Shown: one piece after another, positions 1-9,070 of the stretch | Layout: each line of letters starts with the position of its first letter | Position numbering within the stretch: the stretch's first letter is position 1 | NCBI GenBank assembly: GCA_025998875.1 | Contig: AP024675.1 | Location: 1,641,077 to 1,705,076 of the forward strand | Length of the DNA: 64,000 nucleotides | Source of the DNA: Bacteroidota bacterium | Lineage (GTDB): Bacteria; Bacteroidota; Rhodothermia; JANXDC01 | Direction: 5' to 3' | Program-made: the position numbers and the translations under genes | The notes under the pieces: generated by a model | The model's input: only the letters and a program-made list of their open reading frames with translations | Database searches by the model: none | What the model was told of the DNA's origin: nothing

Positions 1-239
1 CCTTCGCCGTGCTCGGCGGCAAGAAAGATGAGCTCCGGTTCGACCTCCAGCAGAGCTTCCTCCTGGCAGAACCGAAGTTCACTCAAGCCGCGCAGTTCCG
101 GATGTGCAGACCAGATCGGTTTTCCGGCCGCATGACGGCTGCTGACGGCCTGCAGGCATACGCCGGGATGGTGCAACAGGAGCCGGATGAGCTCTCGGCC
201 CACGTATCCAGCCCCGTGAAGCAGGGCCACGCGTTTCAT
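1..239 (-). CDS. argC: N-acetyl-gamma-glutamyl-phosphate reductase, 5' part (runs off the left edge; not in ORF track)
   Basis: Manual translation from ATG at 239: MKRVALLHGAGYVGRELIRLLLHHPGVCLQAVSSRHAAGKPIWSAHPELRG..., a typical ArgC N-terminus (GxxGYxGxELxRLLxxHP; HPxLRG). ATGA overlap with the stop of the upstream gene. Confidence 0.9.
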   Translation of the reverse strand, partial: MKRVALLHGAGYVGRELIRLLLHHPGVCLQAVSSRHAAGKPIWSAHPELRGLSELRFCQEEALLEVEPELIFLAAEHGE

Positions 240-1312
240 CCGACCGCCTCCATCGAAACATGCCCGTTGCTGGGCCATCCGCTCATGCTCAGCGCGCGCA
301 TCACGCAGTTCACAAGCGCATCGGGCTCTTGCTGGGCGTTATAGGCCGGAATGCCCAGGGCGTTCTGAATGTAGCGTTTGCCCACGGCGTTGTCCGTTAC
401 GGGACCGACTATGGCCGTAATAGGGCTCCGGTATCGGGTGCGGAACAGGTAATCGGCCGCCCAGGCCCCGGCCAGATCCGTTGCCGCCACCACGTGCGCG
501 GCGGTCAGGGCGCGCAATTCCTTGTCCATGAGTAGCTCGTCCACCCCGTAATAGCCGATGAATCCGTCGCCCAGCTCCAGGACGAGCACGTCCGGCCGGG
601 AGGCGTTGAGTTCCTGAATGATCCCTTTAGCGATAGGCACCATGTCCTTGTTCACCGAGGAGACCACACCGGCGTCGATGAAGGTCAGACAGGAGATGGC
701 TCCGGCCTCCTGCATGGCGCGCACGTCGCGCAGCAGGGCGGCTCCGGTGAGCTTGGCTGCCGCTACACGAAGGCCCCGTGCGCTGAGGCCGCGCACGATC
801 TGCGCGGCTGCATAGGTTTTGCCCGTGTTCATGGCCGTGCCGCTGAGCATCACCAGCGGCGCCGAATGGGTCAGCGTGTAGACCGGCTCCAGGGCGTGGT
901 CCTGAATACGGGCATGTCGCTTGAGCCCGTGTACCTCGTAGAGCACCGCGCCCAGCACTTCAACGGGGAGGGCCGGACCCAGATCGGGGTGGTCGGAGGT
1001 GCACTGGCCGAGGATACCGCCCATATTGAGCACATGCAGCACGTCTCCGACCTGGATGCGACGGGGGATTCGGCCGCTGTAGCCCTTGAGGGCCTGCCGT
1101 TCGCCCAGCGCTCCGATGAGCAGATGGCCTTTCCGGAGGGTGTGAAAACGGCCGTCGGTGGTTTCCAGCTGGTTGTATCGATCCTTATCGGCCAACACGC
1201 GTACGACGATGCAGTAGCCCTCCTCGGCGACGATATACGGGCTGATCTCCACTTCATGGGTCAGGTTGCAGGGGCTGGTGCTGGAGGCGATCCAGTCTAC
1301 CGAGATGCGCAT
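236..1312 (-). CDS. DUF1611-like P-loop NTPase-fold protein within the arg operon
   Basis: 358 aa ORF with Walker-A-like SGTAMNTGKT, RVAAAKLTG and VLELGDG motifs. Starts 3 nt after the argG stop and overlaps the argC start. Confidence 0.7.
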   Translation of the reverse strand: MRISVDWIASSTSPCNLTHEVEISPYIVAEEGYCIVVRVLADKDRYNQLETTDGRFHTLRKGHLLIGALGERQALKGYSGRIPRRIQVGDVLHVLNMGGILGQCTSDHPDLGPALPVEVLGAVLYEVHGLKRHARIQDHALEPVYTLTHSAPLVMLSGTAMNTGKTYAAAQIVRGLSARGLRVAAAKLTGAALLRDVRAMQEAGAISCLTFIDAGVVSSVNKDMVPIAKGIIQELNASRPDVLVLELGDGFIGYYGVDELLMDKELRALTAAHVVAATDLAGAWAADYLFRTRYRSPITAIVGPVTDNAVGKRYIQNALGIPAYNAQQEPDALVNCVMRALSMSGWPSNGHVSMEAVG

Positions 1313-1315
1313 GGG

Positions 1316-2530
1316 CTAGCCCTCCGCGCTTGTGGGTTGACGGGTGCGGGCCCGGTGAGCCAAGAGCGAGGATACGCCCCAGATGCGAGCAAACCCCTCT
1401 GCATCCCGACCATTCCAGAGCGTGTTCGTCTCGCCATAGGTGGCCAGATCCGGGGCCAGAAGCCCGTAGGAGCTTTCACAGCCCAGTACCTCGATACGAC
1501 CCCGGTGCAGCCGCAGGCGCACAGATCCCGTCACGGTCTGCTGGGAAGAGTCCAGAAAAGCCTCTATATCCCGCATGACGGGATCGAAATACAGGCCTTC
1601 GTGCAGGAGCATGCCGTAAAAGTCGGCCAGGTGATCTTTCTGGAAACGCTGCCATTTGGTGAGCACGAGCTTCTCCAGTTCCCGATGGGCCGTGATGAGG
1701 ATGAGCGCGGCCGGGGCCTCAAAGCCGATTCGGCCTTTGATCCCCAGGATTGTATCGCCCAGATGCATGCCGCGCCCGACCCCATGTTCAGCGCCGATGC
1801 GGTTGAGCTCCTCGATCAGGGCGACCGGATCCATGGGGGCATCGTTGAGCGCTACGGGAACGCCCTGCTCGAAGGCAATGCGTAGCTCGGCGGGCGTTTC
1901 GGGCGCCCGCTCGGGATCCCGCGTCTGAAGCCATGCCTCTGGTGGCAGGGGCAGGTGGGAGGTGAGCGTCTCGCCTCCACCAATGGTCGTGCCCCACAGC
2001 CCCCGATTGATGGAGTAGGTGGCCTTCTGCTCCGATACGGGCAGGCCGCGCTCCCGCAGGTAAGCCGCTGTCTGCGTGCGGCTCCAGCCCAGATCCCGGA
2101 TAGGGGTCAGGATTTGCAGGTCCCCGGCGAGCACGCGCAAGGCCACATCGAAGCGAATCTGGTCATTTCCAGCCCCCGTGGAACCGTGCGCGATGGCCCG
2201 GGCGCCGATCTGGCGCGCTATCTCGACGACCTTGCGCGCCTGCACAACGCGTTCCGGACCCACGCACAGGGGGTAGACGCCCCCACGCAGGATGTTGCCC
2301 TTGATCAGGTAGCTCAGGTGATCCTCAAAGAGTTCTCGCCTGCCGTCTACGGTCCAGTGTCCCGAGGCGCCCAGCCGGGCCGACCAGTCAGCCAGCCGTC
2401 GGGCCTCGGCCTCGTCAATGCCCCCGGTGTTGACCGTGACCGTGTAGACAGGCTCCCGATAGGTTTCCTGGAGATACGGGACGCAGAAGGAGGTGTCCAG
2501 TCCCCCGCTGAAGGCCAGTACGATTGCCAT
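1316..2530 (-). CDS. argG: Argininosuccinate synthase
   Basis: IVLAFSGGLDTS PP-loop, HGSTGAGNDQIRF, GIKGRIGFEAPAA. RBS AGGAG upstream. Confidence 0.96.
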   Translation of the reverse strand: MAIVLAFSGGLDTSFCVPYLQETYREPVYTVTVNTGGIDEAEARRLADWSARLGASGHWTVDGRRELFEDHLSYLIKGNILRGGVYPLCVGPERVVQARKVVEIARQIGARAIAHGSTGAGNDQIRFDVALRVLAGDLQILTPIRDLGWSRTQTAAYLRERGLPVSEQKATYSINRGLWGTTIGGGETLTSHLPLPPEAWLQTRDPERAPETPAELRIAFEQGVPVALNDAPMDPVALIEELNRIGAEHGVGRGMHLGDTILGIKGRIGFEAPAALILITAHRELEKLVLTKWQRFQKDHLADFYGMLLHEGLYFDPVMRDIEAFLDSSQQTVTGSVRLRLHRGRIEVLGCESSYGLLAPDLATYGETNTLWNGRDAEGFARIWGVSSLLAHRARTRQPTSAEG

Positions 2531-2558: not shown

Positions 2559-2590
2559 AAACAAAAACGCCGGTTCGGGTGAACCGGCGT
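2559..2590 (-). terminator. Intrinsic terminator (attenuator 3:4 hairpin) in the argG 5' leader
   Basis: Minus strand ACGCCGGTTC-ACCC-GAACCGGCGT followed by TTTTGTTT: a 10-bp perfect stem plus U-tract, about 30 nt upstream of the argG ATG. Confidence 0.85.
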
Positions 2591-2619
2591 CTTTTCTTTC
2601 TTCGGGGTGGCTTCTACGT

Positions 2620-2721
2620 TCAAGACGGCGCCCATCCCATACGACGCCCGTTCACCCATCGGGGAACCTTTCCTCGTCGGGATCGTCGGAGGGCCGTCAT
2701 ATGGGACGAGACCTGCACCAT
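2620..2721 (-). CDS. Putative arginine-rich leader peptide of the arg operon
   Basis: Manual translation: MVQVSSHMTALRRSRRGKVPRWVNGRRMGWAPS* (33 aa, 7 Arg: 5 CGA + 2 CGT). Alternative start at 2700 gives 26 aa. Lies between the promoter and the terminator upstream of argG. Confidence 0.75.
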   Translation of the reverse strand: MVQVSSHMTALRRSRRGKVPRWVNGRRMGWAPS

Positions 2722-2730
2722 GCGGGCGCA

Positions 2731-2759
2731 AGTGTACGGAATCCCACGGGGAATGTCAA
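2731..2759 (-). promoter_or_regulatory. Sigma70-type promoter of the arg leader/operon
   Basis: Minus strand TTGACA (2759-2754), 17-nt spacer, TACACT (2736-2731). The leader ATG begins 10 nt downstream of the -10 box. Confidence 0.75.
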
Positions 2760-2848
2760 GAGGTAAGCCAATTTTTTTGCAGGAGATCTTGCTCGGGGTG
2801 CGGAGAAAAGCGGATTTTTTGTCGCCTTACAGTGGGGAGGATAGAGCC

Positions 2849-4117
2849 ATGCACCTCAAAATGGGATGCGGGGTGTTCCTGCTGGGTTGGGCCATTACCG
2901 CATGGGCCCAGGCGGATCGATTGGCCAATTCCCGTTTCGATCCCCGGATGCTGCAGGAGCCCGCTATCCGGGCCGCGCTGGAGTGGGTCGATGCGCACCG
3001 ACGGGAGCACGTCGAGGAATGGATCCGACTGACGGAAATCCCTGCCCCCTCGGGCCGGGAGGCGCGCCGCGCCGCCTACATAAAGGCCGAAATGGAGCGC
3101 ATGGGGCTGGATTCCGTCCACATCGATGCCGCGGGCAATGTGGTGGGTATTCTGCGGGGGCGTTCCCGGCATCCGGCCATCGCCATAGCGGCACATATGG
3201 ATACCGTGCATCCTCTTGAAGAGATCCGGGTGCGCCAGGAGGGGGATACGCTGTATGCGCCCGGTGTGCTTGATGATACAGGGGGGCTGGTGGTCATGCT
3301 GCAGGCGGCTCGGGCCCTGCGGGCGGCCCGTGTGCCCCTGGCCGGGGACGTCATCTTTATCGCCACCGTACAGGAAGAGGTAGGCCTCAAGGGTATGGCA
3401 CACTGGCTGGAACACAATCCCCGTCGGGCCGACATGGTCATCGCCGTAGATGGCAACCTGGGGGATGTGCCTTACGGGGCGCTCGGCATCCGGTGGTTTC
3501 GCTTTCACTATCGCGCCTATGGGGCGCATACTATGCAGAGCCTGGGGCGTCCGAACCCCAACCGGGCCGTGGCGCGGGCCATCGAGGATATCTACCGACT
3601 CCCCCTGCCCCATCCATCGGGCACGTTTGTGATCTACAACATCGGGGTGATCGGGGGCGGGACGGTGCCCAACGCGGTCTCCCAGCACTCCTTTTTCACC
3701 GTGGATCTGCGTTCGCCCAGCGCCCGACTGCTTGCCGAATATGCCGACTCCATTCTGGCGCGCGCCCGCCGGGCGGCTGAGCGGGAGCGTGTACGTTTCG
3801 AGGTGGAAATCCTCAACGATACCCCGGCCGGAGGCACGGAAGAGGAGCTGGCCGATCGAAGAGAGCATCCGCTTGTGCAGACGGCCGTGCACATCCTCAA
3901 CCACCTGGGCGTGGGGCAACAGCTGGGCCGGCCCGTTCGACCCCTGGCCAGCGGATCGACGGATGCGAACATGGCCGTTGCGCGCGGCATTCCGGCCATC
4001 GCCTTCGGGAGGGGCTTTGGACGGGATCAACATACCCTCCAGGAGGCCGCACATATTCCAAGCGCCTTCCTGGCCACCAGAGGCCTTATCCTGCTTATCG
4101 CCTCCCTGCTGCGCTAG
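2849..4117 (+). CDS. Secreted M20/M25/M40-family metallopeptidase
   Basis: Signal peptide ending AWA-Q; motifs AHMDTV, PGVLDD, QEEVGLKG, GSTDAN, HTLQE. GGAGG RBS before ATG 2849; the ORF-track start at 2579 is rejected. Confidence 0.85.
   Translation: MHLKMGCGVFLLGWAITAWAQADRLANSRFDPRMLQEPAIRAALEWVDAHRREHVEEWIRLTEIPAPSGREARRAAYIKAEMERMGLDSVHIDAAGNVVGILRGRSRHPAIAIAAHMDTVHPLEEIRVRQEGDTLYAPGVLDDTGGLVVMLQAARALRAARVPLAGDVIFIATVQEEVGLKGMAHWLEHNPRRADMVIAVDGNLGDVPYGALGIRWFRFHYRAYGAHTMQSLGRPNPNRAVARAIEDIYRLPLPHPSGTFVIYNIGVIGGGTVPNAVSQHSFFTVDLRSPSARLLAEYADSILARARRAAERERVRFEVEILNDTPAGGTEEELADRREHPLVQTAVHILNHLGVGQQLGRPVRPLASGSTDANMAVARGIPAIAFGRGFGRDQHTLQEAAHIPSAFLATRGLILLIASLLR

Positions 4118-6728: not shown

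Positions 6729-9070
<2,342 letters not shown>

Follow-up and report, generated by a model that had tools for sequence, protein, structure and literature searches.

The closest described system to the gene studied here is the ACG33_RS14135 family, for which GapMind 2026 (bioRxiv 10.1101/2024.10.14.618325) proposed, as a prediction only, the role of an alternative N-succinylglutamate synthase. In its passages on this family, the preprint argues from the arg gene neighbourhood, the absence of ArgA, a weak Foldseek likeness to the Protein Data Bank (PDB) entry 7XRJ and a residue of the carbamoyltransferase ArgF'. That entry is DgcN, which its title and the same preprint describe as a D-glutamate N-acetyltransferase, and which is given as the sole characterised DUF1611 protein. 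Our literature search for work linking DUF1611, N-acetyltransferase and glutamate found nothing. We analysed a 64,000-nucleotide stretch of contig AP024675.1 (the window), from a hot-spring bacterium of the Bacteroidota whose closed genome is a single contig of 2.35 Mb rated 100% complete. The gene in question, here called X, lies on the minus strand within an arginine operon (Table 1). We propose that X is probably, though far from certainly, a non-GNAT N-succinyl-L-glutamate synthase that carries out the first committed step of arginine synthesis.

As the preprint describes for ACG33_RS14135, X codes for a hypothetical protein in an arg operon with argB, argC, argD, argF' and argG; its genome lacks ArgA; its structure has a weak likeness to DgcN (7XRJ); and the neighbouring ArgF' carries a residue of the A/P/S/V type, Ala95 in this genome. 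Judged by these described features, X and ACG33_RS14135 very probably belong to the same family. The role of first enzyme is already published as a prediction for what is apparently that family, and our data corroborate it from an independent lineage. The N-terminal domain, the lysine shared with BioD and the paralogs outside arg operons do not appear in the preprint's passages on the family. Beyond the preprint, we add the exceptions in which X co-occurs with ArgJ or GNAT proteins, the domain anatomy (an N-terminal domain unmatched in the PDB and the BioD-like lysine) and the question of the acyl donor.

An earlier note on this DNA described X as an open reading frame (ORF) of 358 residues tightly coupled to both neighbours, and the sequence bears this out. 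The argG stop codon TAG (1316-1318) and the ATG start of X (1312-1310) are separated by the three nucleotides CCC, and GGAGG stands a few bases 5' of the start codon. At the other end, the stop codon TGA of X (238-236) overlaps an ATG (239-237) as ATGA (239-236). This ATG opens MKRVALLHGAGYVG, and it is likely the start of argC, rather than that of a longer ORF from 278, because the argC model aligns from two residues past that methionine. The order of the minus-strand operon is argG-X-argC-argD-argF'-argB, and its end faces a convergent pyrophosphatase gene. X is the sole unassigned gene of this otherwise complete operon.

The arginine pathway of the genome has one gap, the first step. Present are argB, argC, argD, argF' and argG, together with the M20 deacylase, while argH and carB (1374 bits) are located elsewhere. 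The search for ArgJ in the complete genome found none, and the only match to the ArgA model TIGR01890 was the kinase domain of argB. A model of the GNAT proteins encoded in arg operons had no match in the genome even at E ≤ 1. Only four genes match the GNAT family PF00583, each more than 350 kb from the arg operon, and none of the four matched the NCBIfam ArgA models. The earlier note had asked whether the genome has a complete canonical argA/argJ and argB set; here ArgA, ArgJ and an arg-operon GNAT are absent and argB is present. A carbamoyl-phosphate-type enzyme was also considered for X and is unlikely, given that carB is present.

The linkage to arg genes, which the earlier note had suggested looking for in homologs, is conserved. 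Among the loci with a strong X match, our own included, argC lies downstream of X in all 22, and argG lies upstream of it in all but one; at this exception, locus L024, X opens the operon. All 20 further genomes have argC-(argD)-argF'-argB downstream of X, argD being missing from the operon in two. A fusion of argG and X, read from stop-to-stop frames of 750-837 aa in G036, G252, G304 and G456, was rejected on the three loci inspected. The sequence ahead of X proved to be argG read out of frame, in high-GC DNA, at L022 and L027, and the two parts meet in a run of N at L030.

To describe the distribution, we used two sets of genomes. In the phylum sample, the X family matches at E ≤ 1e-10 in 32 of 401 genomes. 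In the class sample of 201 genomes, with an ortholog cut-off of E ≤ 1e-110, 49 genomes carry an ortholog and five more have weaker matches only; ArgJ is found in 24, and the arg-operon GNAT model, made from three genes that immediately precede argG in operons of sister families, matches 126. Neither ArgJ nor GNAT is present in 39 of the 49 genomes with X, and one or the other is present in 138 of the 152 genomes without it. One and the same family can contain either solution: X was found in 11 genomes of family f7 versus GNAT in 3, and in 6 genomes of family f59 versus GNAT in 1. ArgJ adjoins argC in family f4; argG and argC are adjacent in family f9, with the GNAT elsewhere, and the same holds for a near relative (G124), which has no X between the two genes. 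Sister lineages carry their GNAT directly upstream of argG, whereas X is directly downstream of it. X shares its proposed reaction and pathway position with the GNAT N-acylglutamate synthases (ArgA; BT3761/Cabys_1732 type) and with ArgJ, and is unlike both in sequence and fold. Taken together, X and ArgJ/GNAT show the pattern of non-orthologous displacement, with both in some genomes. The anti-correlation with argA/argJ raised in the earlier note was therefore found to be largely complementary (39/49 genomes with neither ArgJ nor GNAT) and not strict, with co-occurrence in 10/49. In this X is unlike the family of the preprint, for which the passages on it report no co-occurrence with Pseudomonas-type ArgA; the ten genomes here carry either ArgJ or a different type of GNAT.

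These ten genomes speak for a different reading, in which X is not the first-step enzyme but contributes to arginine synthesis otherwise, for instance as a nucleotide-dependent accessory protein or regulator, as a metallochaperone serving the M20 deacylase or by catalysing a side reaction, and an unrecognised protein does the first step. Paralogs in non-arg contexts point the same way, as does the fact that chaperones and regulators are common among SIMIBI P-loop proteins (HypB, UreG and MinD/ParA in our fold search). We consider this improbable, as no other first-step candidate was found in 39 of the 49 genomes and all remaining steps of the pathway are assigned. In addition, the 62 aligned family members have no invariant Cys or His, as a metallochaperone would need, and no G3E or NKxD-type family scored among them, save cobW in 1 of 62 (0.0013).

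Clustered at 90% identity, the homologues of X number at least 1948, and 'hypothetical protein' is every name among the 120 matches listed. After clustering at 50% identity, 1286 representatives match X with E ≤ 0.001, and 772 do so with E ≤ 1e-10. The names on homologues include Rhodothermales, Acidobacteriota, Myxococcota, Sumerlaeota and Gammaproteobacteria; a protein of Woeseia sp. (Gammaproteobacteria) is 42% identical to X over 333 residues (E 4e-85). The Pfam scan of X gave only DUF1611_C (PF07755), with 21.6 bits where the cut-off is 25 bits, and over 38 residues at the P-loop, and it gave no match to DUF1611_N (PF17396). NCBIfam gave nothing over threshold, and the bioD and AAA_26 models of Pfam and NCBIfam did not match X. 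The earlier note had recognised no canonical Arg-enzyme motif in X, and indeed Pfam and NCBIfam at E ≤ 0.01 contain no match to GNAT (PF00583 and relatives), ArgJ (PF01960) or amino-acid-kinase families. The 62 aligned family members match CbiA (25/62), MobB (25/62), DUF1611 (17/62) and, weakly, AAA_26 (7/62) at E ≤ 0.01, a mixture that at the sequence level marks a generic SIMIBI P-loop. The Walker-A-like motif seen in the earlier note is present and conserved across the 62 members, with G164 and K165 invariant and T166 conserved in at least 90%; K187 is invariant as well. A sequence search of the PDB with X alone and with its family profile found only the P-loop stretches of FtsY, BioD and MobB, and no DUF1611 chain at E ≤ 10. 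The nearest clusters in the ESM Atlas are unnamed or auto-named 'DUF1611 domain-containing protein' and have no Pfam family in common; they serve as a lead only.

In profile comparison by hhalign, the X family matched DUF1611 over 275 columns (95.3%, E 2.1e-8) more closely than it matched BioD over 167 columns (84.3%, E 7.2e-6). X and DUF1611/DgcN are alike in length, about 350 aa, and in the fold of their C-terminal P-loop domain, and X shares with DUF1611 the GxxxxGK[T] loop, a [VL]EG/ELG motif and a C-terminal 'TG[IL]P' element. However, the N-terminal domain of X is all-beta, unlike the Rossmann-like DUF1611_N domain, and K187 stands in place of the TGQTG motif. X is a remote relative of DUF1611 in the P-loop domain only and lies outside the family, because its score is below threshold, DUF1611_N is missing and a true DUF1611 gene exists elsewhere in the genome. 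Thus, the 'DUF1611-like' label of the earlier note holds as remote homology of the P-loop, also seen in the match to 7XRJ (Z 15.5), and fails as family membership. The true DUF1611 gene (G000:C1, about 1540091-1541164; L058:1447-2520; minus strand, 357 aa) scores 245.7 bits with DUF1611_C and 74.8 bits with DUF1611_N; it is about 100 kb away and not linked to arg genes, and no informative Pfam matches were found among its neighbours. As a general first-step enzyme this gene was ruled out, DUF1611 being absent from the X-bearing families f2, f3, f6, f7 and f10 of the phylum sample. Two separate matches to the bioD model are also encoded in the genome (G000:C1:2340342-2340845 and 500997-501485; 139 and 122.5 bits).

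We modelled X with AlphaFold2 on its family alignment, with a pLDDT (predicted local distance difference test) of 96. The N-terminal domain modelled alone reached a pLDDT of 92, and DSSP of the models assigned almost only strands to it. This domain had no match in the PDB, the best VIA-align Z being 3.1 among 48,161 chains and the best Foldseek E 0.77. Its invariant residues are G32, R72, A74, L95, G99, G102 and G121 (across 27 sequences, orthologs and paralogs together). Residues from about 145 to 347 aligned by VIA-align to the DUF1611 structures 2g0t_B (Z 17.3) and 2obn_A (Z 16.1), to BioD 1a82 (Z 16.3, root-mean-square deviation 3.1, 179 residues) and to DgcN 7xrj_A (root-mean-square deviation 3.0, 180 residues). 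CTP synthase, formyltetrahydrofolate synthetase, HypB, UreG and MinD/ParA were also among the matches of the fold search, and all that Foldseek of the whole model retrieved for the C-terminal domain were generic SIMIBI proteins (TMq about 0.4). By these models, the fold scores against DUF1611, BioD and DgcN are essentially tied, and it is the profile comparison that favours DUF1611 over BioD.

This tie bears on the chemistry. Dethiobiotin synthetase, CobQ/CobB, CTP synthase and formate-tetrahydrofolate ligase share this fold and work through phosphorylated intermediates. X could accordingly catalyse the same first step as an ATP-dependent succinate:L-glutamate ligase, phosphorylating the carboxylate at the P-loop to form succinyl phosphate that is then attacked by the amine of glutamate; we regard this as possible but unlikely. 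Like BioD, X has a P-loop of the form GTxxxxGKT, a lysine after strand 2 and the Glu of an 'EGAGG/ELGDG' motif: K187 aligns to the invariant Lys of BioD (K38), where DUF1611 has no Lys (TGQTG), and E246 aligns to a conserved Glu in both BioD (E114) and DUF1611. The conserved P-loop itself does not discriminate between the two chemistries, as DUF1611 keeps the invariant Walker A Lys too. The profile is nearer to DUF1611, and the only characterised DUF1611 protein is described, in the sources cited above, as an acetyltransferase. X is also unlike BioD in that BioD is a single-domain protein of about 220 aa with no N-terminal domain, and X has no biotin-related context. The argument for ATP and free succinate is the BioD-type Lys together with the many carboxylate-activating ligases on this fold, and the argument for succinyl-CoA is the closer profile relation to DUF1611 together with the description of DgcN. 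By analogy with DgcN, we estimate that succinyl-CoA would be roughly twice as likely a donor as free succinate in an ATP-dependent ligation. It is plausible that X and DUF1611/DgcN have a glutamate-acylating activity in common.

To predict the acyl group, we examined the carbamoyltransferase encoded in the same operons. According to Shi et al. 2007, as quoted in bioRxiv 10.1101/2024.10.14.618325, a change of Glu92 to A, P, S or V switches the specificity to N-succinylornithine. Ala95 of our ArgF' aligns to Glu92 of the Xanthomonas N-acetylornithine carbamoyltransferase, and its best PDB match also has Ala. Since ArgF' has Ala in place of Glu92, the intermediates would be succinylated, and the pathway of this genome is most likely the succinyl variant, which GapMind 2020, in the part that treats it, reports as known from Bacteroides. 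The ArgF' residue in 21 X-bearing genomes is A in 15, S in one, T in three and Q in two, and in four GNAT-bearing relatives it is A in three and S in one. A pathway on acetylated intermediates, with X making N-acetyl-L-glutamate, would be in line with the description of the related DgcN as a glutamate acetyltransferase, with the presence of ArgJ, which handles acetyl groups, in 4 of the 49 X-bearing genomes (the three examined have T or Q in ArgF'), and with the score of our ArgF', which exceeds the cut-off of NF003384, the NCBI 'N-acetylornithine carbamoyltransferase' model, at 425.6 bits. However, this score does not settle the acyl group, because the acetylornithine carbamoyltransferase label is a known misannotation of the succinyl-specific Bacteroides enzyme, as stated in the same part of GapMind 2020, and the Glu that defines acetyl specificity occurs in 0 of 21 ArgF' sequences, while A or S occurs in 16 of 21. 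We consider the acetyl pathway very improbable. The earlier note had suggested a non-orthologous N-acetylglutamate synthase; its candidate for a first-step enzyme replacing ArgA/ArgJ is upheld by the gap, the synteny and the distribution, and its acetyl group is not, succinyl being likelier from Ala95 of ArgF'. In the three X plus ArgJ genomes examined (G455, G308 and G493, loci L082, L084 and L086), which have T or Q in ArgF', the pathway may be mixed or transitional; argD is missing from the operon at L084 and L086.

In the succinyl-CoA-dependent scheme that we prefer, X would N-acylate L-glutamate to N-succinyl-L-glutamate, replacing the non-homologous GNAT-type ArgA and ArgJ. ArgB, ArgC, ArgD, the N-succinylornithine-type ArgF' and the M20 deacylase would then process N-succinyl-L-glutamate. 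The beta-rich N-terminal domain with the invariant R72 may bind the amino acid. We infer this reaction from the gene and its operon, the gap, the synteny, the distribution, the remote homology and the ArgF' residue, all of which the analysis shows.

The distant homologues of X adjoin ABC exporters, DUF2490, isoaspartyl peptidase or M20 peptidases. At the nine distant-homologue loci, L041-L047 among them, an ABC exporter gene was found in six (ABC_membrane, with ABC_tran too in three) and DUF2490 in four; at L039, the gene after the homologue codes for an isoaspartyl peptidase/asparaginase_2. Paralogs of X also lie directly downstream of an M20 peptidase (L040:8077-9096, L048:8164-9195 and L049, about 8018-9031), and the loci L040 and L048 carry a flavin reductase as well. 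This M20-linked subfamily matches the X family profile at E 1e-65 to 1e-76 and occurs in Rhodothermia genomes that also have an arg-linked copy, plus another Bacteroidota family. The repeated pairing of a paralog with an M20 deacylase would fit two enzymes of which one makes an N-acyl amino acid and the other removes it. On a broader reading, a superfamily of ATP-dependent N-acyl-amino-acid synthetases would have X as its founding member, dedicated to arginine. The BioD-like domain would activate a free carboxylate, here succinate, as an acyl phosphate, the beta-rich domain would present the amino acid, here L-glutamate, via Arg72, and the paralogs that are paired with M20 deacylases, ABC exporters or an isoaspartyl peptidase would form further N-acyl or beta/gamma-linked amino-acid conjugates. 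We offer this as a speculative and rather unlikely extension; if it is true, the first arginine step in many phyla needs no acyl-CoA. One metagenomic protein of 626 aa, P0184, found on four contigs, has an X domain fused to an amino-acid-kinase domain of the ArgB/ArgA type (TIGR00761, 127 bits, below cut-off) and bears the JGI name 'acetylglutamate kinase'. A second candidate fusion, P0261 (687 aa, 'X + argC'), was rejected as low-complexity, frameshift-like text.

Several observations weigh against X as the first-step N-succinyl-L-glutamate synthase. ArgJ stands beside X in 4 of 49 genomes (G244, G308, G455, G493) and GNAT in 6 of 49 (G036, G112, G406, G460, G466, G500). The identity to the operon-linked GNAT is 59-69% in six loci compared and 63-69% for the three that co-occur with X; the co-occurring GNATs are as conserved as elsewhere and are real counter-examples to strict exclusivity. 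Of the 152 genomes lacking X, 14 have none of X, ArgJ and GNAT. The tables were counted by hand with kinship ignored, and the comparison with GNATs covers the model made from the three sister-family genes. T or Q in ArgF' (5/21 genomes) falls outside the published switch rule. Around eight distant homologues of about 25% identity, no arg gene lies within 1.5 kb. The P0184 fusion is a singleton, and among the 120 matches listed only P0184 covers more than 53% of the query. Finally, X and ACG33_RS14135 were matched by described features, the nearest sequence link being the Woeseia sp. protein.

Many bacterial phyla appear to have no first enzyme of arginine synthesis. If X fills this gap, pathway reconstruction and the prediction of auxotrophy would change for Rhodothermales, Acidobacteriota, Myxococcota, Sumerlaeota and Gammaproteobacteria, and the P-loop fold would be a third unrelated solution beside GNAT and ArgJ.

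Table 1. Features at the X locus, with positions in the window and their strand.
Feature	Position	Strand	Remarks
Gene X	236..1312	-	358 aa, ATG start; ORF and translation; candidate N-succinyl-L-glutamate synthase of an uncurated family
N-terminal beta-rich domain of X, residues 1-147	872..1312	-	invariant R72 in LGERQALKGYSG motif
C-terminal SIMIBI/dethiobiotin-synthetase-like P-loop domain of X, about residues 148-345	278..871	-	VIA-align, hhalign
Walker A loop GTAMNTGKT of X, residues 158-166	815..841	-	SGTAMNTGKT is residues 157-166, window 815-844
argG, argininosuccinate synthase	1316..2530	-	404 aa; NF001770 345 bits, TIGR00032 336 bits, both over cut-off
argC	1..239	-	leaves the window; TIGR01850 300.6 bits for the whole gene
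M20 (ArgE/DapE-type) deacylase, candidate N-acyl-citrulline/ornithine deacylase	2579..4117	+	divergent; sub-threshold NCBIfam matches, e.g. TIGR01910 71.7 bits
Promoter-like TTGACA-17-TACACT	2759-2731	-	upstream of argG
Arg-rich leader ORF	2721-2620	-	33 codons, 8 Arg (RRSRR, RR; MVQVSSHMTALRRSRRGKVPRWVNGRRMGWAPS)
Terminator-like GC-rich hairpin	2594-2563	-	14 bp, with T-run, about 30 nt ahead of argG

The start of the M20 deacylase is uncertain, as the M20 domain begins at about residue 145 of the longest ORF. Upstream of argG, the region 2563..2759 looks like a putative arginine-sensing transcription attenuator of the operon, judging from its promoter-like, leader and hairpin elements; the Rfam search of the leader region matched no family. 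As X is in the operon behind this leader, it is under whatever control the leader exerts.

Traces of the locus were found in RNA-library contigs from two hot-spring/sediment metatranscriptome sets. Two pieces of 151 nt match X exactly (605-755 and 780-930), and one piece of 189 nt matches the 3' end of argG (1334-1522) with one difference; contigs as short as these are no proof of transcription. Two runs of raw metatranscriptome reads, sampled at only about 3%, gave 0 reads on the locus. DNA near-identical to the window, with at least half of the words sampled, is present in 18 runs, and the majority of these runs carry the label hot springs metagenome.

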